A stretch of 64,000 nucleotides of DNA from a virus. Below the pieces are notes generated by a model. It had not been told where the DNA came from and made no database searches. It was given only the letters and a program-made list of their open reading frames with translations. The DNA lies in IMG/VR virus record IMGVR_UViG_3300027719_000003, positions 1 through 64,000 of that record. The stretch is one strand, 5' to 3'. Positions 1 to 51,558 of this stretch are shown piece by piece (the first letter of the stretch is position 1; each line of letters begins with the position of its first letter). The position numbers were made by a program, and so were the translations under genes.

Positions 1-177
1 AGCCCTACCGTGCTCTGATATCTCCTCTACTGAGCACCCACAGCCCCTAATCAGATCATACAGCACACCACCACTCTGTACATCAAAGCCAACGTCTCTA
101 ATGGCGTCAACTATCCGAAGAGCACATTCCTTAATAGTCTCAGCGCTCTTTTCCTTAATCTCAATCTGTAGTACCAT
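1..177 (-). CDS. hypothetical protein (runs off window edge)
   Basis: ATG at 177 after AAGGGGGAG RBS; open frame MVLQIEIKEKSAETIKE... to window edge. Confidence 0.6.
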   Translation of the reverse strand, partial: MVLQIEIKEKSAETIKECALRIVDAIRDVGFDVQSGGVLYDLIRGCGCSVEEISEHGRA

Positions 178-205
178 TTTCTCCCCCTTCTAAAACCTTA
201 TAGAT

Positions 206-234
206 ACTATACTACTATTTCAGCTAGAAGTCAA
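206..234 (-). promoter_or_regulatory. sigma70-type promoter TTGACT-17-TATAGT
   Basis: Matches the recurrent phage promoter consensus CTTGACW-N17-TAYRST. Confidence 0.6.
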
Positions 235-431
235 GTATAATATCCGGCATAAATTATGTCGAGCTGTCTCATATCCATTCCCTTACTCTGTAAAAATGAA
301 ATAAATGACCACATTTCGCCTTCTGCGAATCCTCTAGGGGTATCGTATCCCTCTGTTTCTACATCTATGGACTTAGTGGCTATGTATTCCCTAATCAGCA
401 CAGATAGCCGCTCTTCAAAGGCATTATCCAT
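231..431 (-). CDS. hypothetical protein
   Basis: Start reassigned to MDNAFEE (ATG 431) after GGAGG RBS. Confidence 0.6.
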   Translation of the reverse strand: MDNAFEERLSVLIREYIATKSIDVETEGYDTPRGFAEGEMWSFISFLQSKGMDMRQLDIIYAGYYT

Positions 432-708
432 TCTGTACCTCCTCCCACAAATACTCAAATCTAACGATAGACGACGCTCTGAACGGCTGTATGATCCCCG
501 AAGGCATCCCTCGCCTATTCTTAGACGCCAACCCACCATTCCATATCTTGATGTGGAGCGATGGATCAAGCCCATTCTTTTTAGGCATGAGCACCTTCCA
601 TATCGTGCCTTCATACACCAATCCAGATGCAAGCGTCACCCGAACATCCTTGCCCTTATTGCGTTTACACTTCACCAAGTCTTCATAGGGTACTTTTGAT
701 CTGCCCAT
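424..708 (-). CDS. hypothetical protein
   Basis: Start reassigned to MGRSKVP (ATG 708) after purine-rich RBS; tightly packed with neighbours. Confidence 0.6.
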   Translation of the reverse strand: MGRSKVPYEDLVKCKRNKGKDVRVTLASGLVYEGTIWKVLMPKKNGLDPSLHIKIWNGGLASKNRRGMPSGIIQPFRASSIVRFEYLWEEVQNG

Positions 709-913
709 CCTCTTCTCCCCACCTGTCAATGGGACGAGATGTTGCATATTCATAGAACATCTTTTCGCCCATAGCAATCCATCCAGCACAAAAAGTTTCC
801 TCAGACCAATCGGAATAAAATGATGCAATGTCTACGTCGTCCCAGTCGTCGAAAGCGTTTCCAAGTAATCTAATAACAGCTATAGACTCAAGTTGGTATG
901 GTCGAAGTTCCAT
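683..913 (-). CDS. hypothetical protein
   Basis: 76-aa ORF with GAGG RBS, operon-like packing. Confidence 0.55.
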   Translation of the reverse strand: MELRPYQLESIAVIRLLGNAFDDWDDVDIASFYSDWSEETFCAGWIAMGEKMFYEYATSRPIDRWGEEDGQIKSTL

Positions 914-916
914 ATT

Positions 917-1303
917 CTACCTCACATCTATACTCGGCACGATCACCGATGGCTTAAAGACCACCCTATAATGCGAAGTAGATACGGCACTAGCCTCAAG
1001 TGCCTCAGAAAAGTACGTCACGTTATCCGACAGGCCAAGGTAGTGCTTCAGGTACTCCCCACTATCCGTTTTTACCGTGACGACAAGATCACCGTCGCTA
1101 TCAACGATAATAGCAAGCCTACCCTCTATGGTGAGAATATACTCACCGTTGATGCCATTGTAGAACACAACACGGCGGTACACATTGAAATTCTGTTCCT
1201 CTCTCTCAAGATTAGCTCTAGCCACAGTTGCATCGTTGACGCAACCAGTGATGGATACTGCCACCATAACAGCCGCCAGAATCACAAAAATAACCTTCTT
1301 CAT
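917..1303 (-). CDS. phage lipoprotein
   Basis: Signal peptide with lipobox (ITG-C); C-terminal KHYLGLSDNVTYF motif typical of a common phage lipoprotein family. Confidence 0.75.
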   Translation of the reverse strand: MKKVIFVILAAVMVAVSITGCVNDATVARANLEREEQNFNVYRRVVFYNGINGEYILTIEGRLAIIVDSDGDLVVTVKTDSGEYLKHYLGLSDNVTYFSEALEASAVSTSHYRVVFKPSVIVPSIDVR

Positions 1304-1322
1304 CTTGTCCTCCTTATGTTTG

Positions 1323-1351
1323 TTTAGTCAGGTTGAAGCAGTTGTTATACG
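1323..1351 (-). mobile_element. truncated attC-like recombination site (R'' and L'' half)
   Basis: CGTATAAC-AACTG-CTTCAACC-TGACTAAA; 25 bp identical to 52204-52228; the inverse core is complementary to GTTATACG at 2171-2178. Confidence 0.75.
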
Positions 1352-2119
1352 TCTTTCTATTATCTTACAATATTCTTCTGATATTTCAGAACCGATCCAG
1401 TTACGCTTATTGAGCATTGCCATTTTAGCTGTGGTTCCTGAGCCCATGAAGGGGTCGTAAACCAAGTCTCCTTCATTGCTCCATGATATGATATGATCGT
1501 TAGCTAATTGTTCTGGAAATATAGCGGGGTGTTGAAAAGCGATTTTGTCTTGTGTAGAATGTCCTGCCCCGGCATTTATTCTCCAGATATTACCTTTTAT
1601 CTTATCTACACCAACAGGTTTCCTTTTCTTTTCTGATCGAGCCGCCCTGTTTACTTCATCTGTTTTAGAGAAATAGCTGTTTTGTCGTGCTGTTTCTTTT
1701 TCTGGGTACAAGCAAGGCACACGGATAGGATTAAATGTTTTTGGTGCTCCTTTAGAGAGCACAAACATATATTCAAAATCCTGCTCATATCTGTTATGGT
1801 TTTTAGGTAGGCAGTTTTTATGATATATCATAGTGTCATGCAGATTAAAACCACATTCCTTAAAAAATAATGCTTGTCTAAACGAAGTACCCGTTTCGCT
1901 TCTTTTAATCGTAGCATCACCAACAACCCAAACCACAACCCCGCCTTGCTTTGTCACTCTATATAGCTCTTTAGCTACTGCCTCAAAATCAAAACTATAG
2001 CCATTGTAGGTTCTCAGATTGTCATAAGGAGGGCTTGTCACAGTTAGGTCAATAAAGTTGTCTGGCATCCTTGCCATAGTGTCAAGGCAGTTTTCATTGT
2101 AGCATTTATTTATTTCCAA
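1328..2119 (-). CDS. DNA methyltransferase (N4-C/N6-A, beta class), borne on a cassette
   Basis: TSPPY catalytic motif, HPAIFP, DPFMGSGTT SAM-binding motif. Confidence 0.92.
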   Translation of the reverse strand: MEINKCYNENCLDTMARMPDNFIDLTVTSPPYDNLRTYNGYSFDFEAVAKELYRVTKQGGVVVWVVGDATIKRSETGTSFRQALFFKECGFNLHDTMIYHKNCLPKNHNRYEQDFEYMFVLSKGAPKTFNPIRVPCLYPEKETARQNSYFSKTDEVNRAARSEKKRKPVGVDKIKGNIWRINAGAGHSTQDKIAFQHPAIFPEQLANDHIISWSNEGDLVYDPFMGSGTTAKMAMLNKRNWIGSEISEEYCKIIERRITTAST

Positions 2120-2182
2120 TTCTTTCTCCTTTGCGGATTGTAGGCATAACTTGTTATGCCTTTTGCCGTCCGTATAACTATG

Positions 2183-2221
2183 ATTATACCTATCGGTATA
2201 ACTACATCCAAAAATCCCTAT
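2183..2221 (-). promoter_or_regulatory. 39-bp repeated promoter/attI-like element, copy 1
   Basis: ATAGGGATTTTTGGATGTAGTTATACCGATAGGTATAAT identical to 52593-52631; TTGGAT-17-TATAAT with palindrome TTATACC-GATA-GGTATAA. Confidence 0.8.
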
Positions 2222-2313
2222 ATACGAGCAGTTGGGTTCGAACCAACGTCCACATGGTGCATTACCTAATGCTACGGTAGCGAACGGAGGACTCGAACCC
2301 CAATCTCCATGTG
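2222..2313 (-). ncRNA. tRNA-like (circularly permuted, YrlA-like) structured RNA
   Basis: Two T-arms (GGGG-TTCGAGT-CCTC; GTTGG-TTCGAAC-CCAAC), a D-arm (TAGCATTAGGTAATGC) and a 7-bp closing stem CACATGG/CCATGTG; no canonical acceptor stem or anticodon loop. Confidence 0.5.
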
Positions 2314-2348
2314 TGTCCTAGTCCTCGTAGACGATGCTCGCATGAACT

Positions 2349-2906
2349 CTACATCCTCCCAAAAATGATATTAACATACTCAATAGTCGATGCCGGAATA
2401 TCCCCACTAAGTACTCGTTCCAACCCGGCATTATACGAAGCGAATGCCAATTTCCAGTCCCCCGTTTGATCATATAGAAACGCCAAATGCTTTCCGGCGA
2501 ATTCCAATGCATCATTGACATTACTAGGGCAAAATCCCTCTATATTGTACTTCCACCCAAAATACTTCACATATTTGGAATTTACTTGCACCAATCCAAT
2601 ATCATAGGAGCCATTAGTATTAGGGCCACTCATCTTTTCTGGATCAAACCCTGACTCCCACTCTACCATATTGATAAAGTATTCAAGGGGGATATTATAC
2701 TCCATGCAAGTAAAAACCAGCTTTTCTCGAATGGCTTCCGGTACTCTGTCGAGAGGGGACGGAGTGAAGTCTACTATGCCAATATCATCCATTTTGTCTC
2801 CGTACACAACCTCAAATGGAAGAGGTAAGTATGCACTTGCCCCAATAGATGTCAGGATCGCCAGCACTACTAAGCCCACTCCTGTTTTACGCACTGGTGT
2901 CACCAC
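2349..2906 (-). CDS. membrane-anchored lytic transglycosylase (SLT family)
   Basis: N-terminal hydrophobic helix; WESGF catalytic motif, GLVQVN, ASYNAG. Confidence 0.88.
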   Translation of the reverse strand: MVTPVRKTGVGLVVLAILTSIGASAYLPLPFEVVYGDKMDDIGIVDFTPSPLDRVPEAIREKLVFTCMEYNIPLEYFINMVEWESGFDPEKMSGPNTNGSYDIGLVQVNSKYVKYFGWKYNIEGFCPSNVNDALEFAGKHLAFLYDQTGDWKLAFASYNAGLERVLSGDIPASTIEYVNIIFGRM

Positions 2907-3364
2907 GAATCGATGGAATGGATAAACTCAACACCTTTGTCAGTGTCAAACCAGAATCTTCGACGCCATGCGCGCACTTCAATCAAATCTTTGGTCTGAA
3001 CTACTTCATCCTCCATCAGCATTGCAATGGCCAGTATCGACAGCCGATCAGAATGATCCACTGTTTTGATTATATAATGCTTTGTAACCTTTGGTTGTGT
3101 GTCCAATATATATGCCTTTTCAGTAGTCAAGGCAGACAATTTCCCTACACGCGGCCAGAATACATAGGATATTCCCGGAACCCGTATGAGATATGATTCG
3201 TCTTCCCGAATAGAGCCATTCAGTTTACAAAACATGCCTTCTGGAGTATGTTCATACGGATCGGCACCAGCAGGCACCACAGCCACTACAACTCCTGCCC
3301 GCTCTATATTCACCCCCCCTACTGGAATCTCCCAATAAACCTGATCGCCACAATTAAACTTCAT
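2900..3364 (-). CDS. hypothetical protein
   Basis: 154-aa ORF with GGAGG RBS and upstream promoter. Confidence 0.7.
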   Translation of the reverse strand: MKFNCGDQVYWEIPVGGVNIERAGVVVAVVPAGADPYEHTPEGMFCKLNGSIREDESYLIRVPGISYVFWPRVGKLSALTTEKAYILDTQPKVTKHYIIKTVDHSDRLSILAIAMLMEDEVVQTKDLIEVRAWRRRFWFDTDKGVEFIHSIDSW

Positions 3365-3388
3365 GTACGCCTCCTCGTTGATATAAAT

Positions 3389-3417
3389 AGTGTACTACAA
3401 CTTCAGGGAAAAGTCAA
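3389..3417 (-). promoter_or_regulatory. promoter TTGACT-17-TACACT
   Basis: Consensus match. Confidence 0.65.
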
Positions 3418-4724
3418 GCATAATCGTCTGGCCTCTGCTCAAACAATCTCTCTAACTGATCCCCTCGCTGGTCAGCCCTATTGTACAATGCTTCATCAAA
3501 CACGATCTTCACCCCTATCGACTTCTTCACCGACAATGCGAACTCATCCCAATACGGCGACCCTAGCACAAGGTCGGCAGGATATGGTGTCCTATTCTTT
3601 CTCGCCGCCATTCTCCCAAGGAATTCCGCAAGCCCCAGCATGGCATTCCTACCTATGATAGTGCCATACCGTTTATCCTGCTCAACCAAATCTTTCCTAT
3701 GTTCCAGATACCAGTTGTGGAGTTTCCATAATGCGGCCACTACCGGCTCACTAAAATCAAACCGTTGGTACATTCGCTTTATCATCTTCAGTGCATCTTG
3801 GAAAATCTGGTCAGCTACCATCTCATCCTTATCGCTCTTCTCGATCTTGGCAACCGGCTTGAAGGGAACCTTCTTTCCGGTACGCATCTCGGCTATCGCG
3901 TCGAGCAACGGACTCTTCCCTGACTTGAAGTTACGGAAGAAATTCGGTAGGGACGTGACATACGCTGGTATACGCTTACACGCTTCGGCTATCTCCTCTG
4001 CTGTCACGGGGCCTATCGTCGTATAGTCATAGCTCGGATTCTCTGGCTTGTACTTGGCTACGAAGGAACCATCGAGTAGGGCACCATACTGATTGTAGAC
4101 TGTAGTTATACCTTTATACGTCTTGCCATTACCATCCTGTATCTTCGGTTTAAGGTGTGATACTTCCTTAACATGATCTATAAACGAAATGAACCAATCA
4201 GGTAGTGGCTTGGATTTGGATTCTTCGGGGAATAAATTATCACCTGAAGGAGTGGGCTGGGGCACTACTGCACCTGTAGCCTTATACTGCAACCACTCCT
4301 TGCACACGGTCTCTGTATCAATGTCTGCCTTCGTTTGATAGAACAGAAAATGACGGACTTGCATGGGTATGTGAAAGTACACACGATGTCCCGTCTCGGG
4401 ATCATGTTGGTTATACTTTTCTAACAGGCCACGCTCTACCAGTTTACGTATCACTGTGCTAAGGTTATGCGTACTCGACACTGGTACCATTTTATAGTAT
4501 CGCAAAAAGGTTGAGTAACACATCCACGCATAGTCTTTACCATCTATAATGAGGATGTTAGTCTTAGTACCATCCAGCAACCACTTGATCCATCCTAACA
4601 ACGCGGCCTCAGTGTAGGATAGATTATATTCTGCGGCGACGGGGCCATAGATACCCCCACCACAGGGGTATCGAGCTGTCTCTCTCCATGAAGCACATAG
4701 CTCCTGTAACTCATCTGTAGCCAT
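3414..4724 (-). CDS. putative replication initiator / winged-helix DNA-binding protein
   Basis: N-terminal pattern AALLGWIKW...DGKDYAWMCY...VIRKLVERGLL resembles phage replication-initiator wHTH domains. Confidence 0.5.
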   Translation of the reverse strand: MATDELQELCASWRETARYPCGGGIYGPVAAEYNLSYTEAALLGWIKWLLDGTKTNILIIDGKDYAWMCYSTFLRYYKMVPVSSTHNLSTVIRKLVERGLLEKYNQHDPETGHRVYFHIPMQVRHFLFYQTKADIDTETVCKEWLQYKATGAVVPQPTPSGDNLFPEESKSKPLPDWFISFIDHVKEVSHLKPKIQDGNGKTYKGITTVYNQYGALLDGSFVAKYKPENPSYDYTTIGPVTAEEIAEACKRIPAYVTSLPNFFRNFKSGKSPLLDAIAEMRTGKKVPFKPVAKIEKSDKDEMVADQIFQDALKMIKRMYQRFDFSEPVVAALWKLHNWYLEHRKDLVEQDKRYGTIIGRNAMLGLAEFLGRMAARKNRTPYPADLVLGSPYWDEFALSVKKSIGVKIVFDEALYNRADQRGDQLERLFEQRPDDYA

Positions 4725-4787
4725 ATTTGTCCTCCAATATACAGTGAGGGTACTGCCCTAAAATTGGAGCAGTACCCGCTTACTATA

Positions 4788-5714
4788 CTAGTCTGTGATT
4801 ATATCAGGGTAATATTCAGGGCACCCGTCATCAGGATTATTTACATAAGTGACTTTAACCCAATCACTATCTTCCGGGGGCATACCCTGCCAACACGCTT
4901 CATCACTGCATTTATTGTCGTCACACTCGGGGTGTTCTGCGGCCCATACAATAAGACTAGGCATCACAGACAGCAACCACTTCTCAAGTTGACGTATCTT
5001 CACAGCCGCCTGTAAGTATGTCTCATCCTCATCCATACGGGACACGAAAGCAAGAACATCTTCATCAATAGCTTTTTGCGTAGGCAGATCACTCTGATTT
5101 AGATACCCCTGTGCTCTAAGATAAGGGAATACAGCCTTCCATGGAACATTACTAAAATGTTTAACACATAAGCCAATACTAATAACACTCTCACACTGCA
5201 TCAAGGCATCATAATCTGCCAATTTAGAAGCAATATCTGTATCACTATCTAGTGGTACCTCTTGTGAAACTCCATTAATAGAAGTAGCTACAGTGTGCCA
5301 CCCATTAGTAAATCCGCCCTTAAATATGTCAAACGTAACCGATGCCCTTGTTTCCATTGTGCCACTCTCATCTAAAAACTGTAATGGGGGTACTCTGCTA
5401 AGGAATTCATCCAAAGAAAGTCTAAACAACTCCCCATTATTGACTCTGTAGGAACCAAACTCCTTGTGTAGATATTGCTCTATTTCTGCATGGTTAGTAC
5501 ACGCCTGAGTAAATGCGATTCGTCCAATAACAACATCAGAATAATTAAATGCAGAACTTTTAAGAGCACGTGATCTTTTTCTAAGATGAGTTGTGTGCCC
5601 TATTTTTATGCAGTCCCCATACTCTAGTGCATACACGTGCCCAAACCATACAGGGCTTTTCTTGGGTAAAGCCCCCACATCATCCACGATAGTCCAATCA
5701 GTCTGCTTATCCAT
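4788..5714 (-). CDS. T5orf172/GIY-YIG-like domain plus antirepressor KilAC-like domain
   Basis: GHVYAL...IKIGHT...EQYLH...GELF (T5orf172); YDALMQCE...VFPYLRAQGYL...LPTQKAID (KilAC-like). Confidence 0.72.
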   Translation of the reverse strand: MDKQTDWTIVDDVGALPKKSPVWFGHVYALEYGDCIKIGHTTHLRKRSRALKSSAFNYSDVVIGRIAFTQACTNHAEIEQYLHKEFGSYRVNNGELFRLSLDEFLSRVPPLQFLDESGTMETRASVTFDIFKGGFTNGWHTVATSINGVSQEVPLDSDTDIASKLADYDALMQCESVISIGLCVKHFSNVPWKAVFPYLRAQGYLNQSDLPTQKAIDEDVLAFVSRMDEDETYLQAAVKIRQLEKWLLSVMPSLIVWAAEHPECDDNKCSDEACWQGMPPEDSDWVKVTYVNNPDDGCPEYYPDIITD

Positions 5715-5736
5715 ATAGTCCTCCTAGAAACGAAAA

Positions 5737-5857
5737 GGAGATTATAGAGTCCCCCGTGCAAGGGTTGGGGCTAGGTAGCGGCTAGCCTTGGACTCTATAA
5801 TCTCCCTAATAACTCTGCTACTGCGAAGTATCATGACGGTTGCACCCGGCATGATGC
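5737..5857 (-). ncRNA. c4-antisense-like structured leader / attenuator
   Basis: 16-bp stem (5737-5752/5790-5805) enclosing two hairpins; loops GCTAC and TTGCAC are complementary to upstream GTAGC and GTGCAA. Confidence 0.45.
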
Positions 5858-5861
5858 AAGT

Positions 5862-5890
5862 AGTGTAGCACACTTTTTCGATTTTGTCAA
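5862..5890 (-). promoter_or_regulatory. promoter TTGACA-17-TACACT
   Basis: Consensus match; a second copy lies at 5959-5987. Confidence 0.65.
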
Positions 5891-6019
5891 GTACTATTTT
5901 CAATACCCGCCATACTGCCACTATGAGGGGGCACATCCCTCCACCGCAGTATAGCAGGAGTGTATCATGCAATCACAGATTAGTCAAGCACTATGGAGGT
6001 ATAAACCATAGAGGGGGTA

Positions 6020-6192
6020 GGTCTTATAAATAGATGGGGTGGTCTTAAAAGTAAACCGACCCCGGTCTTAAAAGTAAACCTTCTTAATATAATCATATAG
6101 ATAATAAATAATATAGTATACTATCATATACTATATTATTTATTGGAATGATAGTGTTATTCTTAACAGAATAACAGGCGAAAATTCGCCTT
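6020..6192. repeat. putative replication origin (iterons, AT-rich tract, palindromes)
   Basis: GGTCTTAAAAGTAAACC twice plus a degenerate copy, followed by an AT-rich stretch with a 14-bp inverted repeat AATAATATAGTATA/TATACTATATTATT. Confidence 0.45.
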
Positions 6193-6438
6193 CTTCTTTT
6201 TTCAGTGGACTGTAAGAAGGTACAAGATGCTATCCACCTGAAGATAATCTATAAGTAGTTATTGCGTTTTTCGCCCATCGCACCCATCATTATGCCTCCA
6301 TCCCGTCGCTATAGCGGTTTCCTGCGTCACCACGGCGTTTTCTGAACGAGTGCCATAGTTTCCCTCTATATAATGGTGCATTGATTCTAGGGGCCTTCTC
6401 GTTGAATCTAGGATAGGTAGGAATTTGTAGGATTTTGC

Positions 6439-6467
6439 TTGACTTTTTGTATGAGTGGTAGTACACT
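6439..6467 (+). promoter_or_regulatory. promoter TTGACT-17-TACACT
   Basis: Consensus match; the TTG start used by the ORF track is the -35 box. Confidence 0.7.
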
Positions 6468-6498
6468 CTGTTTAAGTTTTTGGAAGGAGGGTACAATC

Positions 6499-7251
6499 AT
6501 CTGTGACTTTATTTCTTGGATAGAGAAAGACGGAAAGCTCTACTGGTCTAGGGATGACGAAGTAGAGGCCGAATATGGTGAGATAACCAATCAACATTGT
6601 GGGCATGGTACCATACGGGAACTGCACAAGTTGAAGGGTGGTATTGAGTATGAGTCTGCCCTCAAGATTCCGCGAGAGATAGCGGCCTCAGTAAATCGTG
6701 GCGAGATGAAGAAACTTGCCAAGGCTGGTGGTTGGCACGGGGCACACTACACTGTTGGTGGTGCGAATAATACCACCTATTGGATTAGGTTCAAAAAAGA
6801 ATTGAAGAAGTATAAGGGAGTAACCTATATTTTGGATAACCACGGCCCCATTGATCCTGAGTGGAGGATATTTGACACGAGGGAACAGGCTAGGGAACAG
6901 GCTAGGGATCAGGCTAGGGATCAGGCTTGGGAACAGGCTTGGGAACAGGCTAGGGAACAGGCTAGGGAACAGGCTAGGGAACAGGCTTGGGAACAGGCTA
7001 GGGATCAGGCTAGGGATCAGGCTAGGGATCAGGCTAGGGATCAGGCTAGGGGTCAGGCGTGGTATCAGGCTAGGGATCAGGCTAGGGATCAGGCGTGGGA
7101 TCAGGCATATGTAGTGTCTGCCGTACTTCTTGAAGGCTACGAGACTTCAGAATGGTACGCCTATTGTAAGAAGCGTCTGGATATATGGGAAGCAGGATAT
7201 GGTGTACTATGCGATATCAACGGAGTCTTCTATGTGTATAAGAGCCTATAG
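6499..7251 (+). CDS. hypothetical protein with (R/W)xQA tetrapeptide repeats; apparent ATC start
   Basis: Long open frame; GGAGGG RBS 7 nt before ATC-TGT-GAC. Confidence 0.7.
   Translation: MCDFISWIEKDGKLYWSRDDEVEAEYGEITNQHCGHGTIRELHKLKGGIEYESALKIPREIAASVNRGEMKKLAKAGGWHGAHYTVGGANNTTYWIRFKKELKKYKGVTYILDNHGPIDPEWRIFDTREQAREQARDQARDQAWEQAWEQAREQAREQAREQAWEQARDQARDQARDQARDQARGQAWYQARDQARDQAWDQAYVVSAVLLEGYETSEWYAYCKKRLDIWEAGYGVLCDINGVFYVYKSL
6880..7107 (+). repeat. 19 x 12-bp coding tandem repeat
   Basis: Mostly (A/T)GG GA(A/T) CAG GCT units. Confidence 0.95.
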
Positions 7252-7343
7252 ATAATATAGTTGTCAGGAGTATAACATATATTCCTGACAATTTGCTTGA
7301 CTTCTAGGTAGGATTGCAGTACACCATTGGTACGGAGGAATTT

Positions 7344-7613
7344 ATGGTACAGGCTAGGCCGTTCGAGATTGGTGGCGTTGTGGTTCAGGGTCATTATGTT
7401 ATCATAGCTGATGACGTGGTGTTGCTTCAGGCTGATTACAACATCGTGGCTATGAAGCGGGATGGGAAGATGTATGTGGATAGATCACGAGTAGTGGATG
7501 GTATGCTACGAATAGGGTGCTACAATTCGATTGCATTCTTTTTTGGGCACCATGAATTACATACTAGGCAGTTTGAGTGTGCCGATCTAAACAACGGAGA
7601 CCTGATCCGTTAA
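7344..7613 (+). CDS. hypothetical protein
   Basis: ATG 7344 after GGAGG; promoter TTGACT-17-TACACC at 7297-7325. Confidence 0.65.
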   Translation: MVQARPFEIGGVVVQGHYVIIADDVVLLQADYNIVAMKRDGKMYVDRSRVVDGMLRIGCYNSIAFFFGHHELHTRQFECADLNNGDLIR

Positions 7614-7699
7614 ATAAAATTTATTTTCCAGAAAACGGAAAACCGACAAATGCGCTCGGGATGGAAGATAAACCGACAAAGATACTAAGGAGAAAGACT

Positions 7700-7849
7700 A
7701 TGAAGAGATCAACCGAATACCGATTTGAACAGAAAATAAAGCATGGAGAACTGAAGAAAGTAATACTTTGTTCAGAAGCAGGAGAAGAAATTCTCTATCA
7801 GAAAAACAATTATCGGGAAAGAGATTACAGAAAAGAATGTAGAAACTAA
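7700..7849 (+). CDS. small basic hypothetical protein
   Basis: AAGGAG RBS, MKRSTEYRFEQKIK... Confidence 0.45.
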   Translation: MKRSTEYRFEQKIKHGELKKVILCSEAGEEILYQKNNYRERDYRKECRN

Positions 7850-7900
7850 CAAAAGAACAAACATATTCTGCAAAGAATAAGTAACAAAGTGACAAAAGAT

Positions 7901-7943
7901 AAACGTGATATTGCCAGAAACAAAAGGTAATATCACGTTTTTT
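7901..7943 (+). terminator. rho-independent terminator
   Basis: AAACGTGATATTGCC/GGTAATATCACGTTT stem plus T tract. Confidence 0.65.
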
Positions 7944-8540
7944 ATTAACTAAAATAAGTAATAAAACGATAATAAAGTTAGTAAATAATGTTAAATAAAA
8001 CTAATATATAGCTAATCTAATGTATAATTTAATTAACTTTATGGGTGTTTCTTAGCTCTAAGGGGAGGAGTAGCAGTGATACTATTATAATATATGGGAT
8101 GTTTTTATAACTTATTTTTGAGATGTGTTTGAACTTTTTCTTTTATGTTTGATGTGTTTGTTTGATGCACACGCGCGAGAGGTGTACTGGTTCCTTTTCT
8201 ATGATCTTAATATAACCAATACAGTCACCAGTATAGTCTATTCATATATATGGATTTTCATATTTAACGAATCCATATATAGTATAATCTTTATATAACA
8301 ATAGACTATACTAAAAGCCTATATAGTAATTATTCTATGTAAAGATTATATAATATATAGATTCTAGTAATTATCTATATATTATCTTTTAATCACCTTC
8401 TCTATTCGCTCATTATCATACATGGAACATATATAAAATTGATCGAATAGGCGATATGGATATATAAATATAGAAACGTAGTAAAAATATATGCCATATA
8501 TGGAAGAAAAAGAAAATCGATGAAAATGATTAAAAATCGC

Positions 8541-8569
8541 TTGACACGCCTTGAATACATGTATACAAT
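8541..8569 (+). promoter_or_regulatory. strong early promoter TTGACA-17-TACAAT
   Basis: Near-consensus with A-rich UP element. Confidence 0.75.
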
Positions 8570-8599
8570 GCAGTATCTTATTAGTACGGAGGATCAATC

Positions 8600-8839
8600 A
8601 TGTTTATGACGGGAACGGTCAACGGAAAGCGTATAGCCTATGACAGTGACTATACGGAATTTCTCGTACAAGTCGGCAAGGGCACAAAGGGAAGCTATAA
8701 AACACACTATAGTTTTATAGGTAAATTGAATCAAGCCGTTATGTATTACAATGCTATCAATATCGGCAACGGTTACAAAAAAAGGCTTTATATGCCTTCG
8801 TGCTCTAAAAATCCAGTTATAGTGAAAGCGAGTAGCTAA
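8600..8839 (+). CDS. hypothetical protein (early gene block)
   Basis: GGAGG RBS, first ORF after promoter. Confidence 0.75.
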   Translation: MFMTGTVNGKRIAYDSDYTEFLVQVGKGTKGSYKTHYSFIGKLNQAVMYYNAINIGNGYKKRLYMPSCSKNPVIVKASS

Positions 8840-8840
8840 A

Positions 8841-9026
8841 ATGTCAATACATACCTATAGTGTCAAAGTCGGAAGCGGCGAGGCTTATACGGGAACGGAT
8901 AGGACTAGGGCACTTGACGTATACTGTCAAGTCGTAGTACAATCACCGCGAGCGGAATATATAGAATTAGACCGTGACGGAAAAATGGTCAAGTTAGACC
9001 ATGGACGTATGACGATTAAGGCTTGA
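8841..9026 (+). CDS. hypothetical protein
   Basis: Packed ORF. Confidence 0.6.
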   Translation: MSIHTYSVKVGSGEAYTGTDRTRALDVYCQVVVQSPRAEYIELDRDGKMVKLDHGRMTIKA

Positions 9027-9073
9027 CACGGTACGCCGTGACAAGTATTATCATAGGCAATGGAGGAACGAAC

Positions 9074-9496
9074 ATGATAGCGAAGATAGGAAAGCTAAAC
9101 GACAGTATAAGCGACGAGGGAGCAAGGGCTCGCGATAAAGGATTGATAAACGGTATAAAGGTTATCGATATCAATACTAGACAAGATATAGTAGACTGTC
9201 GGCTATACATGAGCAGGAGTAGCGCGGCGAGCACCATATACTGTAATATATGGATAAGGCGAGCGCCCTACGGCGCGGCGAGCGGAAAAGCGGGCGGATA
9301 CGGCTATGACAAAAAAAGTGCGGCTGTCGGCTCCGCGCTGGACAATCTCGGTATCAACCTCTATCAGGACGATGGTACAAAGCCCGTCAGTATAAACGGC
9401 GCTGGCGATACTGCGATACGCGAGGCACTACTCGCCGTAGCCGTAGCACTAGGGTATAGTGCGGATACCCTGATATACGTAGAGTGCTACGCATAA
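9074..9496 (+). CDS. hypothetical protein
   Basis: ATG 9074 after GGAGG; GKAGGYGYDKKSAAV motif. Confidence 0.75.
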   Translation: MIAKIGKLNDSISDEGARARDKGLINGIKVIDINTRQDIVDCRLYMSRSSAASTIYCNIWIRRAPYGAASGKAGGYGYDKKSAAVGSALDNLGINLYQDDGTKPVSINGAGDTAIREALLAVAVALGYSADTLIYVECYA

Positions 9497-9580
9497 AGAT
9501 ATGCGAGGATTGCGCTATACTTTTATAGCGCTTTCTTAGCCTATTTTATAGGTTAATCTTTTTTTAGTGGAGGCGAGAAA

Positions 9581-9922
9581 ATGAAGCGACGATTAACGCG
9601 CACTAAACTGAACATCGGCATTTATAGTGAAGGCACGCTCAGGCCGTTAGACTTGTGCGATGCATTCGTTTATGAGCTGGCAAGCCTACGATTGTCACGG
9701 CGCGAACGTGCTACTATTCGCGATATACTAAAAAAGCTAGAAATTGAAAATGACAAGCCGTACATTGAACGAGATGGCTACGCACCGTATTTTCAGGACG
9801 CCTATTATGGGGATATGATCGATATTATCGATAGGCATTGCCCGAGAAACGCATATTTTGGGTCGAGCGAAGGCGACGGCGCTTGTATAGGCATATGGGA
9901 ATATATGGGAGAGGAGTATTAA
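9581..9922 (+). CDS. hypothetical protein
   Basis: GGAGG RBS; SEGTLR...YFGSSEGDGACIGIW motif. Confidence 0.75.
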   Translation: MKRRLTRTKLNIGIYSEGTLRPLDLCDAFVYELASLRLSRRERATIRDILKKLEIENDKPYIERDGYAPYFQDAYYGDMIDIIDRHCPRNAYFGSSEGDGACIGIWEYMGEEY

Positions 9923-9923
9923 C

Positions 9924-10325
9924 ATGCGCCGACTAACAATAGACGAGCAAGCGCGCTATAAAGAGTACGAAGGTATCGATATAGATATAGAGATATCGCT
10001 ATTCGAGTATGGTCGTATCTATAAACCGATATATAATGATAACGGCGAACTAATAGAGTATCATATAGTTTATGGAGTGGTACATAACGGTGAGGACTAT
10101 ACGGAATTTGATTATAGTTTTTTGTCAAAAAAAGATTATATAGACCTATTAAAAAAGGACTGGGTAAAAATCGACAGCGTGCTAGAGTATGCCAGTACCA
10201 CGCTGGAAAACATGCAAGAATTCAACGAATGTAATATAGATATATTAATAAATTATCATGGTATAGAAAATATCCTAGGAGGATCGTACAGTAGTAAAAT
10301 TATCGGCGTGGAGGAAACGGAATGA
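9924..10325 (+). CDS. hypothetical protein
   Basis: GAGGAG RBS, packed. Confidence 0.7.
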   Translation: MRRLTIDEQARYKEYEGIDIDIEISLFEYGRIYKPIYNDNGELIEYHIVYGVVHNGEDYTEFDYSFLSKKDYIDLLKKDWVKIDSVLEYASTTLENMQEFNECNIDILINYHGIENILGGSYSSKIIGVEETE

Positions 10326-10516
10326 AGTTTATTTTTTATAGCTCGTTAAGCCCGTATGTTAAGCGTATCTTACGGAAAGCGCTTAAAGAACATATGAACC
10401 ATCGGGGCAGTGAATACAACATTACCCTTGACGGCGGAAGCGTCTATATTACCGTCAAGGGTCAACGCCCCGCGCTACTCGTCAAGGGTGGAACGATAGT
10501 AAAGGGAGTGATATAA
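10322..10516 (+). CDS. hypothetical protein
   Basis: ATGA overlap with upstream gene. Confidence 0.6.
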   Translation: MKFIFYSSLSPYVKRILRKALKEHMNHRGSEYNITLDGGSVYITVKGQRPALLVKGGTIVKGVI

Positions 10517-10833
10517 TGATAACTACATTTGAGGCGTATTGTAAAGATTATTGTACAAAAGACAGTAAAGAAATATCGAGATTTTATGTCAAGCGCAATA
10601 GTGAAGTATTCTTAACGGCCTATGCGCTATCATGCGGTTATATCGATAACTGGAACGACGGTAAATATGAAATAACATTAGATTATAGCAATGAAACATA
10701 TAGATTAAGAATTCGTTACATTCCAAAGGAAGGCGAGATTATCGGCATGAAAGGGCTTGATTTTATGTCACGGCGGCTTGACATAATACGTAAAAAGCAA
10801 GTATTATATATCGATATGGTAAGAAAGCCATAA
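10516..10833 (+). CDS. hypothetical protein
   Basis: TAATG coupling. Confidence 0.65.
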   Translation: MITTFEAYCKDYCTKDSKEISRFYVKRNSEVFLTAYALSCGYIDNWNDGKYEITLDYSNETYRLRIRYIPKEGEIIGMKGLDFMSRRLDIIRKKQVLYIDMVRKP

Positions 10834-10845
10834 GGAGGCTAGAAA

Positions 10846-11160
10846 ATGAAGTATCAATTTATTATAACCGGGCGCCGATGGTTCCAAAAATCCTATGGTA
10901 ACACGTACCATACAGCGACGATGGAAGTACGAGACGAGAACGGTAATACGGTCTACACCTATAAATCAGGCGAGCGATACGGATATGGTGAACAGTTTAT
11001 TACTACGGCCATGGAGTATCTATTCAAGGCCGGATACCTTGACGGTATAAAAAATTATAGTAACGGAGGCACTGAGCCTTTGTGGGCCTACTGCGAGCGT
11101 ATGGGATATCCCGCGCCGATTATCAATACGATAGACGTGACAAGGGAAAAAGACTTATGA
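10846..11160 (+). CDS. hypothetical protein
   Basis: AGGAGG RBS; RRWFQKSYGNTYH...YGYG motif. Confidence 0.75.
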   Translation: MKYQFIITGRRWFQKSYGNTYHTATMEVRDENGNTVYTYKSGERYGYGEQFITTAMEYLFKAGYLDGIKNYSNGGTEPLWAYCERMGYPAPIINTIDVTREKDL

Positions 11161-11426
11161 AAACACATAAAGGCGAGCTAGTAAGTAATACAATGTTAAC
11201 GGAAGCAAGGCGCGCCGTCGCGGAAGATTGGCGAACTATGGCTTATGATATCAGGGTAGAAGACGCCTATGCAAGCCATATCACGGAAGAACAGAAAATT
11301 CAATTTTATCAGGATGAATTGAAATACGCCGATGAAATTGAACTAGGTGAGCATGATAGCAATTTCACTATATGGCAACGATTGAATACTTATATTACCG
11401 GGGAGTGTATAGCTTTACTATCATAG
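11157..11426 (+). CDS. hypothetical protein
   Basis: ATGA overlap start (MKTHKG). Confidence 0.65.
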   Translation: MKTHKGELVSNTMLTEARRAVAEDWRTMAYDIRVEDAYASHITEEQKIQFYQDELKYADEIELGEHDSNFTIWQRLNTYITGECIALLS

Positions 11427-11441
11427 GAAGGATGGTACAGA

Positions 11442-11654
11442 ATGGATATGTTAGTAGATTATCACAATATGCACTCATTGACGGCTACAATCAAGGCGTT
11501 GACTATACCAGCGCGTAGTTTAATGCGATCAAATAGCCTTAATGAGTACAATGCCGATATAGGGCGAGGAATGGCTGAAGACTTCGCATTGTTTGCAATA
11601 AGGCGCGGTCTAAAAGTCACTGAAGTAAATAAGCATAAGGATAGTACGGAATAG
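11442..11654 (+). CDS. hypothetical protein
   Basis: Last ORF before terminator. Confidence 0.6.
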   Translation: MDMLVDYHNMHSLTATIKALTIPARSLMRSNSLNEYNADIGRGMAEDFALFAIRRGLKVTEVNKHKDSTE

Positions 11655-11675
11655 ACTAAACAGTAGCGTTTCTAC

Positions 11676-11705
11676 GGCCCTATACATAACAGTATAGGGC
11701 CTTTT
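11676..11705 (+). terminator. rho-independent terminator
   Basis: GGCCCTATAC/GTATAGGGCC stem plus TTTT. Confidence 0.75.
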
Positions 11706-12029
11706 CTGTATATCTAGCTATTTAGACTATAGCACTGTATAAAACACAATAGTTGCAAAGTTTCCAAATATTGCAACTATATATCATTATGATATCTAAT
11801 TGATATAGATAATCATTATCAATTAGACATAGGTAAGGAATAGTGTATCATTTTGACACATATAGTTAGAAGAGTGTATCATTATGATACAGTGTAGGAT
11901 AGGGTATATAATAAGGTATAAGGCAGGTGGGGAGCAATCTTTCTTATTCCCTAACATATTTTCAAATTTATAGTTGACAAGCCTTCCCTATCGTGCTATA
12001 TTATGTATATCAAGATTAGGGAGGATCAA

Positions 12030-12224
12030 ATGGACAAGACAGTAGCGATGGACGTAGCCGTGACTAACTTCGCCGACAAGCTAAGGCGCTTTAATGCTTC
12101 CAGCACTACCACTACCAAGGTAGTCAAGGATCGCCAACACGTCACGGCTATCTATCACAAAGAGGAGCGTAAAGCCATTATCTACGATAAGGCCGCTACA
12201 TTGCTAATTAAGCGGTCTAAGTAA
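12030..12224 (+). CDS. hypothetical protein
   Basis: ATG 12030 after GGAGG; promoter TTGACA-17-TATATT at 11974-12002. Confidence 0.65.
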   Translation: MDKTVAMDVAVTNFADKLRRFNASSTTTTKVVKDRQHVTAIYHKEERKAIIYDKAATLLIKRSK

Positions 12225-12319
12225 GCATGGGGAGGCTTATAGCATACATACTAGGGTTTATAGCCCTATGTATTATATTGGATCGATTAGCCTACTACAT
12301 AGGCAGGAAGGATTAGAAC

Positions 12320-12487
12320 ATGGACGGGCTAAACAGTACGGACAAGGTAGTCATAGAGTCGCTAAGGCGTAGAGGCTTCGCCGTGGCTATATGTACACCT
12401 GACGAAGTAGGCAAGGCGAGCGTGGATAGCATAGAAGGCTTTATGCAATTGGAAGGGCTTAGAGTAGCGGATACACTCAATAGATAG
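12320..12487 (+). CDS. small hypothetical protein (55 aa)
   Basis: AAGGA RBS; MDGLNSTDKVVIESLRRRGFAV...; followed by terminator-like hairpin at 12510-12542. Confidence 0.5.
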   Translation: MDGLNSTDKVVIESLRRRGFAVAICTPDEVGKASVDSIEGFMQLEGLRVADTLNR

Positions 12488-13008
12488 CTTACTGTACACT
12501 CTAGCATAGTACCCTAGCCATAATAGGCCGGGGTATTTTTTTATCCTAATGAGTGTAGGCATGGGCAGGGTATAGATAGGTATGAGTATGGACACTATGG
12601 ATGGTAGAGAAGGCAGGAATAGGGTATACCCCCCCCGCCCCCCTTACCCCACCGAACACCTCTGCTCTGTGTCGGCGTCAGGCTAGAGCTTCCGTGGGGC
12701 CAATATGCTCAACTAAAATTTTATACCCAAATATCGCTCCGTGTGGCCTATTGCATAATCCCTATGTGCAAATTCCATCCCCTGTATAAAATTCACTATA
12801 CCCCTATGCCCCTTCCCAAAATTTTATTCAAAAATCTGAGCATAATGGGTTTTTCTGTACCCTCTAGGTAATATCCCCAAAATAGCCCCCATAAGGCATA
12901 CCGGCATGAAAAGGTACGGCCTATAGGGGTAAAACGCCGTGGTGACAATCCTAGGGGCTATAGCGGGCAAAATAAAAGCCCACCTTGTTACGGGTGGGCC
13001 TAAACAGA

Positions 13009-13596
13009 TTACAGATACTTGAGCATAAACTCCAGTGCTTCCTTACCTGTGTCGAATACATAGAGAATAGGCTGTTCATCACTGTCACACATACACGTCT
13101 GCGCCTCATCGAGTGCCCTTTGTCCTGAATCGACCGTATCTGATAGACGATGGGTAAGGCAGTACATCCCGACGAATGTATACAATAGCGTGTGGGTGTT
13201 TTCGTCAGTGGCGCACTTCAGGAGATAGGGTTCTTCCTCCCAAATTGCCACATAGTGCTTATCCGCGTTGTAGACAGTAGCATCATTCTGCTTCTGTCCT
13301 TCACCCTTGAGCTGTAGCACTTCAGCCTCCAGACGCTCTATACGCTTCTGCAAGGCTTCAATGTCATCCTCGAACATCTTGTCTATCCAAGACCACACAC
13401 CTCCGTCTATATCTATCCTATAGGATAGCTCATCGCGGTTTATTGCTTTAATAATGACGCGATCTCCAGCGTATGCAAACATTTCTGGAGGCATACACAA
13501 TTCACTGAACGGTATACTTCCAAACTCATCCTTTGGCTGTGCATCAATCCAAGCCTTCGACTTGATCCGTACCGTGTCCCCTACCTTGTACTTCAT
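13009..13596 (-). CDS. hypothetical protein
   Basis: MKYKVGDTVRIKS SH3-like start common in phage proteins; AAGGAG RBS; downstream hairpin at ~12978-12999. Confidence 0.75.
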   Translation of the reverse strand: MKYKVGDTVRIKSKAWIDAQPKDEFGSIPFSELCMPPEMFAYAGDRVIIKAINRDELSYRIDIDGGVWSWIDKMFEDDIEALQKRIERLEAEVLQLKGEGQKQNDATVYNADKHYVAIWEEEPYLLKCATDENTHTLLYTFVGMYCLTHRLSDTVDSGQRALDEAQTCMCDSDEQPILYVFDTGKEALEFMLKYL

Positions 13597-13741
13597 CTTC
13601 TAGCTCCTTCCTTGTAAATCGATATTGCTCCAGTGCTATGTTATAGGTCTCACACGCACATCCTTCACACTCCCGCACCTTGCTACATTGTGTGGCAGGG
13701 TCATAGGGACATTGTTCCAACTGCTCCGTAGGCACCTCCAT
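13544..13741 (-). CDS. small Cys-rich hypothetical protein
   Basis: ORF directly after leftward promoter. Confidence 0.4.
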   Translation of the reverse strand: MEVPTEQLEQCPYDPATQCSKVRECEGCACETYNIALEQYRFTRKELEDEVQGRGHGTDQVEGLD

Positions 13742-13750
13742 GATTTGTAG

Positions 13751-13821
13751 AGTGTACTATAGGATTGTCGAAAAGTCAAGCGAAAAATATACTTGACTTT
13801 TGTAAAAATTAGTGATACTAT
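13751..13821. promoter_or_regulatory. back-to-back divergent promoters
   Basis: Minus strand TTGACT-17-TACACT (13751-13779); plus strand TTGACT-17-TACTAT (13793-13821). Confidence 0.7.
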
Positions 13822-13853
13822 CTGCATACAACGAAAACAAGGAGGGCAAGGAT

Positions 13854-14276
13854 ATGGTAGCGGCTATTATGTTGATTTGGCTTGTGTTGGCCTTGGTGTC
13901 ATGGGCGTTTATGTACGGAGCTACAGTGAATGATGATGAGGACGAGGATATGAGTTTGGAACTAAGCAGAGGATTGGATTGCAGAACAGCTTTAGGCTAT
14001 AGGGGTGCCGGTTTTGCCAAGGGCTATGGAATTAGGCTCGGTGAGGAATATATCACCCCCGAGGATTTCGTAGAGTTCGTCATGTATGTGATGACGAATA
14101 CCGACCTTGCTCCTAATGATCCCCGTAGGGAATTGAAGGAGAGGCTGTCGGGGCTGATGGAGGTACCGGGCTTCAATAAGGGTAACGTGCGGTATTCTCA
14201 GGCACCAGAGGAGTTTGGGCCGGATTATCGTGTGCTGGCCCCGGATGAGTTTCCTGAGCCGGGAATGGGGGCGTAG
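13854..14276 (+). CDS. hypothetical protein with N-terminal TM helix (possible internal start at MSLEL)
   Basis: RBS before ATG 13854. Confidence 0.6.
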   Translation: MVAAIMLIWLVLALVSWAFMYGATVNDDEDEDMSLELSRGLDCRTALGYRGAGFAKGYGIRLGEEYITPEDFVEFVMYVMTNTDLAPNDPRRELKERLSGLMEVPGFNKGNVRYSQAPEEFGPDYRVLAPDEFPEPGMGA

Positions 14277-14277
14277 G

Positions 14278-14787
14278 ATGGACGGTAATATCGACAAGGT
14301 GCTGGATGAGTTTGACACTTCTAAATATTTATACGATCCCAACACCGGAGTAATTACAAAGAATGGCAAAGGTTGTGGCGCTATCACTAAAAAGGGGTAT
14401 TTGCGTATACAAAATGATGGTAAGAGAATTATGGCACACCGACTTGCATGGTTTTTGTATTTCAAATCATGGCCTTCTGGATACCTCGATCATATAAATG
14501 GAGATAGATTGGATAATCGTATTTCTAACTTGAGGGTGTCGTCTCCTAGGTTGAACGGATTAAATAAATCGATTCATCGAGATGGAAGGTTGTCTGGATA
14601 CAGTAAACAGCCTAATGGTAAATATAGGGCGGAGATATCATTTTCTGGGAAGAAATATTCTCTAGGAAACTATTTTACTGTGGCTGAGGCACACGCGGTG
14701 TATGAAGACGCCTTGGGTAAGGTGTTGGCTGGGAAGAATCCTATCTCCGCCGTTGCCATCGCCAACGCCGAGAAGGACAAGCCATGA
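14278..14787 (+). CDS. HNH homing endonuclease with AP2-like C-terminus
   Basis: AHRLAW...DHINGDRLDNRISNLR; KYRAEI...SLG. Confidence 0.9.
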   Translation: MDGNIDKVLDEFDTSKYLYDPNTGVITKNGKGCGAITKKGYLRIQNDGKRIMAHRLAWFLYFKSWPSGYLDHINGDRLDNRISNLRVSSPRLNGLNKSIHRDGRLSGYSKQPNGKYRAEISFSGKKYSLGNYFTVAEAHAVYEDALGKVLAGKNPISAVAIANAEKDKP

Positions 14788-15017
14788 CTTATCTATGTAG
14801 TCCCGGTCGGTATGAATTTCGTGGTGCTCATATCGAGATGTCTGGTATTGGCGGGCCTTGGGCTGTGAAGGATAGCGGTGATCCTTATATCCGCTTGCCA
14901 CGTTATGTGTCAGAGGCCCTTGATGTTTTCTGGAAACTGCCGGAAGAAGAATGGAAGCAGTATCGTGTTGGTGGCGGGTGCATAGGCATTCCAGATGAAG
15001 GAGACAAAGATGATTGA
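14784..15017 (+). CDS. hypothetical protein
   Basis: ATGA overlap. Confidence 0.6.
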   Translation: MTYLCSPGRYEFRGAHIEMSGIGGPWAVKDSGDPYIRLPRYVSEALDVFWKLPEEEWKQYRVGGGCIGIPDEGDKDD

Positions 15018-15258
15018 CATTGAAGAAGTCGTAGCCGATAATGGCAGTATGATGCGGGTATGGAGATATGCTGATGCCCCAGAACTACTCAAGGGTCTTG
15101 TACTCAATTCAGATTGCTGTGATCTGGTAGTCGCTGTGCCTAGTGAGAAGTTAGGCATACTGGTAGATACCCCATTCATGGATTGGATGTTCGGGGATTA
15201 TATTGTCCCTGAAGTACACGATCTGGGCGAGTGGGTTATTTACTTCGTATTCCATTAA
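15010..15258 (+). CDS. hypothetical protein
   Basis: AAGGAG RBS; terminator at 15281-15306 follows. Confidence 0.6.
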   Translation: MIDIEEVVADNGSMMRVWRYADAPELLKGLVLNSDCCDLVVAVPSEKLGILVDTPFMDWMFGDYIVPEVHDLGEWVIYFVFH

Positions 15259-15322
15259 GCTATAGTTTCATTACTATCTGAGCACCCCTAACCGGGTGCT
15301 TTTTTGTTGTCTACGGGGGTAC

Positions 15323-15351
15323 TTGACAAAGTTAAGAAAGTATGCTATGGT
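15323..15351 (+). promoter_or_regulatory. promoter for terminase operon
   Basis: TTGACA-17-TATGGT with extended TG; shares GAAAGTATGCTAT with the portal promoter at 17405-17433. Confidence 0.65.
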
Positions 15352-15394
15352 GTATTCTCATATATAGCACTTATCTTATATAGAGGAGTTTACC

Positions 15395-17376: not shown

Positions 17377-17474
17377 GCACTATTACGGGTAGTAAATTGG
17401 GGGCTTGACAAAATGACGAAAGTATGCTATAGTGATATAACATAAGAGATTCACTATATAGTGGAGGTGATACG

Positions 17475-19827: not shown

Positions 19828-19836
19828 GAGGATACG

Positions 19837-51500: not shown

Positions 51501-51558
51501 ATGATGCTCCTTATCAAGAGTGTACTACATTTTTACATAGAAGTCAAGTTATTATGAA

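Follow-up and report, generated by a model that had tools for sequence, protein, structure and literature searches.

A probable integron-type methylase cassette in a phage genome without its own integrase

The methylase unit and its boundaries

The DNA analysed here comprises the first 64 kb (the window) of the 73,585-base virus record IMGVR_UViG_3300027719_000003 of IMG/VR, labelled G000, which has direct terminal repeats and a completeness rated at 100%. Near the left end of the window, on the minus strand, lies a gene for a DNA methyltransferase of 263 amino acids (1328-2119), followed by half of a repeat of the type found as recombination site (attC) in integrons and preceded by a copy of the sequence that heads the main repeat array of this phage. 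The protein belongs to the beta-class N6/N4 methyltransferases and matches PF01555 with 161.2 bits (cut-off 26.7, E 4.8e-47) over 220 of the 221 profile positions. A TSPPY motif near residue 30 precedes an FMGSGTT motif near residue 230, and the relatives found in the PDB are N4-cytosine and N6-adenine methyltransferases. The gene shows 71-74% DNA identity over ~480 bases to methylases of large enterobacterial phages. Like the orphan DNA methyltransferases of phages, it encodes a stand-alone enzyme of this class without a nuclease partner, but it differs from them in being apparently packaged as a mobile cassette. The phage backbone encodes a second N6_N4 methylase of the same Pfam family (58393-59160, minus strand), which has 38% identity over 71 amino acids to the methyltransferase cassette of Tetrasphaera phage TJE1.

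The methylase unit consists of 856 bases with a single open reading frame (ORF), the attC lying downstream and the gene being co-oriented with it. As an earlier note on this DNA had reported, the unit runs on the minus strand from GTTATACG (2178-2171) to CGTATAAC (1351-1344), both of which could be read directly from the sequence. The first represents the 5' boundary of the cassette, G|TTATACG, which is the half derived from R' and has its crossover between 2178 and 2177, and the second is the R'' box of the methylase attC and the exact complement of that boundary, start and R'' being complementary at 8/8 positions. Between the boundary and the gene lies a leader (2120-2170, minus strand, direct reading), composed of GGAC, the mini-palindrome GGCATAAC-AA-GTTATGCC (2160-2143) and the ribosome-binding site AGGAG. 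A leader of this type also follows intact attCs in two other loci (L142 and L169). Cassette leaders in general (2143-2160 and 52151-52170 in the window, minus strand, and many IMG/VR loci) have the form GTTxxxxGGA(C/T) followed by a mini-palindrome, often RYYYAAC-NN-GTTRRRY, which resembles an attC without L boxes, and Treponema cassettes likewise carry a hairpin at that place.

The repeat that follows the gene is the left half of an attC (1323-1347, minus strand), made up of the end of R'', the spacer AACTGC, the L'' box TTCAACCTGAC and TAAA. The TGA stop codon of the methylase (1330-1328) falls within it, and its left arm encodes the final six methylase codons (TTAST-stop). The identity of these 25 bases to the attC at 52204-52228, noted before, was confirmed: the window contains two matches at no more than three mismatches, against 0.00 expected from 100 shuffled sequences. 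However, the family consensus described below covers 21 of the 25 bases, and of 97 phage sites, 58 contain TAACAACTGCTTCAACCTGAC and four the full 25-mer, so that the identity alone is no proof of a recent copy. The remainder of the variable loop, L' and R' are missing from the methylase site, in agreement with the earlier observation that the right arm is absent. The right-arm motif GCAGGTTAAGCAAATGTT was found in the window only at 52186-52203 and 51861-51878 and not near 1300, the half site (1296-1352) gave no fold (-1.3 kcal/mol, z 0.00), and a covariance model built from 48 Treponema-type attCs only (model R1) had no match in 1-2847 at E 0.01. Because no foldable attC is left, the methylase would no longer be excisable and hence would be fixed at this place.

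The upstream flank, which the earlier note had not covered, contains 39 bases (2221-2183) identical to 52631-52593 at the head of the main array. This second copy of what we call the attI-like region (2183-2221, minus strand) holds the palindrome TTATACC-gata-GGTATAA (2184-2201) and a TATAAT hexamer, and it is separated from the G|TT junction by the four bases CATA (2182-2179). Transcription of the methylase might start from this TATAAT or occur by read-through.

An attC family common to phages and bacteria

In a circular integron cassette, the bases that will follow G|TT and the R'' box at the cassette end both stem from one attC. Pairing is therefore expected across a cassette and not within a site. 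Complementarity at all five variable positions was observed for 25 of the 45 unique consecutive pairs in the phage arrays, compared with 4.5% of random pairs, whereas the two ends of one and the same site were perfectly complementary in just 4/94. Bacterial control arrays gave 8/25 complementary pairs versus 3.2% for random pairs. Homologues of the methylase itself (62-87% amino acid identity) were found in six other contexts. The methylase 3' end CGTATAAC with the attC was kept in 7/7 occurrences, and in five of the seven the attC is intact, which is the arrangement that the earlier note had proposed to look for. The same discrete unit recurs in contigs of other phages, and this speaks for a cassette. 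All five homologues with a visible 5' end begin with G|TTATACGGAC, each after a different and unrelated upstream sequence. The earlier note had also held that relatives without conserved boundaries would speak against a cassette, but the boundary G|TTATACGG was present in 5/5 starts and CGTATAAC in 7/7 ends. Since the relation recurs across the attC family and in the methylase homologues, the 8-bp inverted boundary goes beyond chance. A chance origin of the boundaries and the repeat was considered as well, and is ruled out by the shuffle expectation of 0.00 and by the family-wide complementarity.

A gapped pattern of the two inner arms retrieved 98 sites of this family in 73 IMG/VR stretches, where they are often arrayed 200-700 bases apart. 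Their consensus is YTAAC-AACTGC-TTCAACCTGAC-(variable stem-loop)-GCAGGTTAAGC-AAAT-GTTRRRY-GGA, and the order R''-L''-loop-L'-R' after the gene is that of integron attCs. In class 1 cassettes (e.g. attCaadA7), the gene is followed by R''-L''-loop-L'-R', with a G|TT crossover, a bulged L'' base and an unpaired spacer. The phage sites share this order, the crossover, one L'' bulge and the unpaired spacer between the R and L boxes, but they are short (~43-70 bases) and are accompanied by neither resistance genes nor intI or attI1.

Two full sites are present in the window, both on the minus strand. One (52177-52234; R1 54.5 bits, E 1.3e-13) comes after a cassette ORF of 97 amino acids (52229-52519), and the other (51852-51921; R1 43.9 bits, E 2.3e-10) after a DUF551 cassette (51870-52111; DUF551 E 2.9e-8). 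The R boxes of the former are TCCTAAC...GTTGGAT, and the latter has a degenerate R'' (CCCAAT...GTTAGCC). Both sites fold at -11 to -14.8 kcal/mol (z -3.3 to -3.9) into an R stem, an unpaired spacer or small internal loop, an L stem with one extrahelical base and a variable terminal loop. R1 matched both far better on the coding strand and found nothing further in the window, but it also matched six sites in a related phage record, G009, and three in phage TJE1, whose L stems show compensatory changes.

The inner arms also occur in at least 120 bacterial stretches, and those among the 80 listed are mostly from Treponema, in which sedentary chromosomal integrons have been described (PMC3607928). 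Three Treponema genomes have an integron integrase of the TIGR02249 family on the same strand as the sites and 3-17 kb away from them, the integrases scoring 483.7 bits (G003), 342.6 bits (G001, summed) and 261.9 bits (G004, just below the cut-off). The L''/L' core TTCAACCTGAC...GCAGGTTAAGC of the Treponema arrays is identical to that of the phage sites, the R boxes are YCTAAC (R'') and GTTRRRY followed by GGAC (R'), and the complementarity runs cassette-wise, as in the phage arrays. In G003 the first cassette is a methylase. Unlike the phage arrays, those of Treponema have an adjacent IntI, their spacers are ACCCGC/GAAT instead of AACTGC/AAAT, and their variable loops are longer. A Desulfosarcina genome carries a site with phage-type spacers 11.7 kb from a 470-bit integrase. 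As R1 finds a single site in this 12.9-kb array, most of the array must belong to another attC type.

In the phage family, the ORF in forward orientation is the longer one in 55 of 71 cassettes, and the median cassette length is 291 bases. Among the unique ORFs of at least 35 amino acids located between two sites (n=64), six are related to DNA modification (N6_N4_Mtase two, MT-A70, C-5 methylase, Dam and Mom one each), and RtcB, an AAA_33 kinase-like protein, DUF551 and MazE are represented once each. The other cargo ORFs had no Pfam match at E 0.001.

No integrase gene was found beside these arrays. PF00589 (tyrosine recombinase) had no match in this phage and in five related records, three of them with terminal repeats, and when ~0.8 Mb of phage DNA was searched by tblastn with a Treponema IntI, no match had an E value below 0.033. 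In view of the missing intI, the phage array is a cluster of attCs lacking an integrase (CALIN) and not a complete integron. The gain and loss of cassettes of this attC family would depend on an integron integrase that the host cell contributes.

A phage CALIN with a methylase cassette is a rare feature that has already been published. According to Qi et al. (2023; PMC9892861), integron components were found in 21 of 10,705 phage genomes, with 17 CALINs and five methylases among the phage cassettes, and IntI1 recombined five of six phage attCs assayed, two of which came from TJE1. This cultured Tetrasphaera phage (NC_019930) carries the same attC family, with R1 matches at 241-298, 1013-1080 and 1459-1524, and the same succession of a palindrome and G|TT at the array head, the palindrome being labelled as a terminator in its record and in PMC9892861. 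One of its cassette leaders has 20 bases identical to that of the present phage, its methyltransferase cassette also begins with G|TTATACGG and ends with CGTATAAC, and it has no integrase, as here. Save for a glycosyltransferase and a methylase, the two phages are unrelated. Unlike TJE1, the present phage carries one cassette on its own, with half an attC, at an attI-like site that is duplicated. The sections of Qi et al. consulted here contain no description of half sites that end arrays. Compared with the cases published there, the present one adds the boundary detail, the attI-like head and the terminal half sites.

The repeats could in principle be RNA or transcription elements (terminators, processing hairpins or modules of the PeSL type) unrelated to site-specific recombination. 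In favour of this, every site forms a hairpin located between short genes and is followed by a leader hairpin, and the palindrome upstream is a terminator in the annotation of TJE1. Nevertheless, the sites are not followed by a T-run, none of the positions in 51400-52800 is terminator-like, Rfam gave no match in the window at the gathering score, the complementarity extends across cassettes (25/45) and not within sites (4/94), and the same sites occur in bacterial arrays headed by an integrase. We therefore regard this explanation as highly improbable. PeSL modules of T4-type phages, which move by homologous recombination between promoter/stem-loop repeats, are comparable in so far as they too are small accessory genes between hairpin repeats in a plastic early region of virulent phages. 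The units described here differ from them by the lack of a promoter of their own and by the cassette-wise R'/R'' complementarity: the main array has promoter-like sites at its head and its end only, and the repeats match the attC model.

Array heads, array ends and the second locus

The head of the main array (52593-52672, minus strand) consists of the promoter-like sequence TTGACT-17-TATACT (52672-52644) and the attI-like region (52631-52593), and its G|TT lies at 52588/52587. A consensus promoter scan calls TTGACT-17-TATACT just upstream of the main array. The palindrome of the attI-like region folds at -4.4 kcal/mol (z -3.83). Of 36 unique candidate array starts, 13 have the architecture TTAnnnn, 4-6 bases, nnnnTAA, 5-7 bases, G|TT, against a background of 44 in 23,935 GTT positions (0.18%). 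A 23-mer of the attI-like copy had no match in IMG/VR. On the basis of this sequence pattern, the palindrome is a candidate for the attI of the phage arrays. The attI region of the Desulfosarcina integron (L288, ~340-400 bases from the intI start) reads TTATTGG-N10-CCAATAAT-ATCA-TTTAGGCC; its palindrome is like the phage attI-like head, but has T for G at the junction and is a single case. The interval from intI to the first cassette in Treponema G003 lacks a palindrome of the phage type. Repeats resembling phage promoters (TTGACT ... TAGTACAC or TATACT) lie at 190-236, 3373-3419, 13735-13781, 51503-51549 and 52628-52674, one of them heading the main array and one coming after it.

The closest comparison is offered by G009, a 55.5-kb IMG/VR record collinear with the present phage (85-95% identity). 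After a common dGTP-diphosphohydrolase-like gene, G009 has seven cassettes and this phage three, and five of the six junctions in the G009 array are perfectly complementary. The homology between the two array heads is 37/43 as far as the G in GTT and drops to 17/43 beyond it, so that the boundary between backbone and cassettes maps to G|TT. For the earlier note, presence/absence breakpoints away from this core would have spoken against a cassette; at the main array the breakpoint lies at the core, whereas at the methylase locus the breakpoints lie at 2221/2222 and ~718-725. The last G009 cassette is a homologue of the methylase (87% amino acid and 78% DNA identity), and its attC is also cut, inside a different loop, and joined to a phage promoter. 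In the same comparison, a dUTPase-like ORF of this phage (54685-55140, minus strand) has an in-frame TAG at 55026-55024 where G009 has TGG (Trp). The difference could be due to a nonsense mutation or to an error in sequencing, or the TAG could be a codon that is read through.

The cassettes might also be shuffled without an integrase. Either the RecA-like protein of the phage would promote homologous recombination over the ~40 conserved bases, or a phage recombinase not recognised as such would be at work, and the integron features would be a heritage of bacterial cassettes. The absence of a tyrosine recombinase from 6/6 phage records, with a best IntI match of E 0.033, the uniformity of the core (58/97 sites with a common 21-mer) and the presence of a RecA-like gene (44978-46087) are all in line with this, and an exchange within the core would keep each gene with its own R' and R''. 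On the other hand, the differing first cassettes adjoin the attI-like site exactly at G|TT, although this site has no core in common with attC, and members of the family from TJE1 are reported as IntI1 substrates (PMC9892861). Shuffling of this kind therefore appears unlikely to us.

The truncation of the methylase attC is not an isolated case. A census of half sites in the phage arrays gave 21 left-arm-only and two right-arm-only sites. One left and one right arm turned out to form a full site with a long loop, and the other right arm belongs to a full site with an altered R', so that the census contains no true right-half attC. Eighteen left-half attCs (16 unique sequences) are array-terminal or solitary and are cut within or just past the loop; two left-half sites are non-terminal. 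The main array of this phage also ends in this way: a degenerate left-half attC, GGCTAAC-ACAGAT-TTAACCTGA (51559-51580, minus strand, direct reading), ends its last ORF and is joined to a phage promoter (51547-51519). The retention of left halves may reflect selection, the TGA of the attC being the stop codon of many cassette genes, or the way in which array ends are formed. The phage encodes an Mre11/Rad50-like (SbcCD-like) nuclease pair at 37504-39515 (minus strand). Nucleases of the SbcCD type cut hairpin loops, and it is a matter of speculation that such cutting is related to the attCs cut at their loops.

The methylase lies within an indel block that extends from 2221 to ~725 and replaces an ORF of 67 amino acids in G009. 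The block contains the attI-like copy, the methylase, a lipoprotein gene of the Phage_VG64 family (917-1303, minus strand; PF25682, E 1.5e-45) and an ORF of 76 amino acids. The lipoprotein gene is not a cassette and is joined straight to the half attC; none of the 80 loci examined for its homologues is syntenic. The left break of the block coincides with the 3' end of a tRNA-like element without anticodon arm (2223-2281, minus strand; Rfam tRNA 27.7 bits for a gathering score of 29, E 8.9e-4). Two tRNA-like elements are present within 2223-2345 (minus strand) and are conserved in G009; ARAGORN calls no tRNA at these elements. A 3.9-kb contig from a landfill metagenome (run X2) bridges 718 to 2349 with 131 other bases and has long sides. 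It also swaps 4724-5711 for 1773 other bases, and since two stretches are replaced in it, the early region of this phage appears to be plastic at several spots. Contig joints with sides shorter than 31 bases (1347>2175, 1355>2123, 1355>2130, 1356>2154, 711>1304 and 714>917) were not used. The coverage by runs X3, X4 and X6 is confined to parts of the stretch, and no conclusion on habitat was drawn from these runs. A search for more relatives of the 2-kb locus, with a 436-amino-acid protein and a tRNA-like 23-mer as anchors, yielded nothing beyond G009 and a single contig that is cut off at its end.

The earlier note had interpreted this region as a second, independent cassette locus. An integron-type unit with a truncated attC, away from the main array, is indeed present, but the ends of the indel are not at G|TT. 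Judging from these sequence comparisons, it was probably not an integrase event that gave rise to the second locus, but duplication or illegitimate recombination within a plastic region. More specifically, the methylase could be a cassette by descent that reached its present position as a block from the main array, with no integrase acting at 2178; the block would have consisted of the attI-like copy and the methylase with its attC already truncated, perhaps also of the VG64 and 76-amino-acid genes. In favour of such a transfer, the two attI-like copies are identical at 39/39 positions within one genome but only 86% identical to that of G009, the G009 methylase is the last cassette of its main array and likewise has a truncated attC, the indel ends at the tRNA-like 3' end and near 718-725, the region exists in three alleles (G000, G009 and the X2 contig), and the phage encodes RecA-like and Mre11/Rad50-like proteins. 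Arguing against it, the two methylases share 78% DNA identity, which is less than the 85-95% of the backbone, and their attCs are cut at different points in different loops, so that they represent separate acquisitions. Moreover, the four bases before G|TT are unlike between the copies. Transfer as a block is accordingly a serious candidate, to which we give slightly less than an even chance.

The other genes identified in the phage include those for a family-A DNA polymerase, a DnaB-like helicase and a clamp-loader-like ATPase, as well as gp32-like and RecA-like (44978-46087) proteins, the Mre11/Rad50-like pair, an RNA ligase and sugar-modifying enzymes. The DNA polymerase (55299-58382, minus strand) carries at its N-terminus a domain resembling uracil-DNA glycosylase, and it also matches an intein splicing domain over a short stretch. 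An ORF at 6439-7251 contains at least ~19 tandem units of 12 bases (6833-7156). Megablast of positions 1-20000 against named phages gave no match.

Integron cassettes in the biology of phages

From the boundaries of the unit, their conservation in the homologues and the attC family to which its half site belongs, we consider it probable that the methylase is an integron-type cassette in a 73.6-kb phage without an integrase of its own (a CALIN). Its attC family is one that bacterial integrons use. Several observations weigh against this. The R'' box of the methylase (GTATAAC) and the start of its cassette (GTTATAC) each deviate at one position from RYYYAAC/GTTRRRY. The bases before G|TT are CATA at the methylase but ACTT at the main array and in G009, and because they differ beside 39 identical bases, a simple copy does not explain the methylase locus. 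The consensus promoter scan made no promoter call at the second attI-like region, and the indel ends relative to G009 and the landfill contig lie at 2221/2222 and ~718-725 instead of at G|TT. No integrase is encoded in any of the six phage records searched (6/6). Finally, the training sites of R1 had been retrieved with a pattern derived from the window, which makes the L-box scores partly circular, while the contributions from the R boxes, the spacing and the loop are not circular.

As to its function, the methylase would modify the phage DNA and thereby blunt restriction by the host. The modified base would probably be N4-cytosine, which is preferred because of the SPPY motif, presumably a pointer to the base specificity of such enzymes. 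A role in the escape from host restriction enzymes is thus probable from the enzyme family.

Phages of this kind may even carry a dedicated integron platform without integrase and borrow the integrase of the host during infection in order to trade counter-defence genes, a possibility that we put forward tentatively and consider somewhat doubtful. Such a platform would combine a conserved attI-like palindrome controlled by a phage promoter, canonical attC cassettes in an array and a last cassette that regularly ends in half an attC. The asymmetry of the half sites is strong, 18 of the 21 left halves being terminal or solitary. Neither the conserved attI-like head nor the terminal half attC was found analysed in the sections of Qi et al. 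(2023) consulted here.

The present locus provides a boundary-resolved case of an integron cassette that holds a gene of the anti-restriction type in a phage of the virulent type. A single, homogeneous attC family is shared by phage TJE1, by at least 73 stretches from uncultured phages and by bacterial chromosomes with integrases, which supports the view of phages as users and carriers of integron cassettes. If the platform described above is real, integrons would be a gene market common to bacteria and virulent phages across many lineages.

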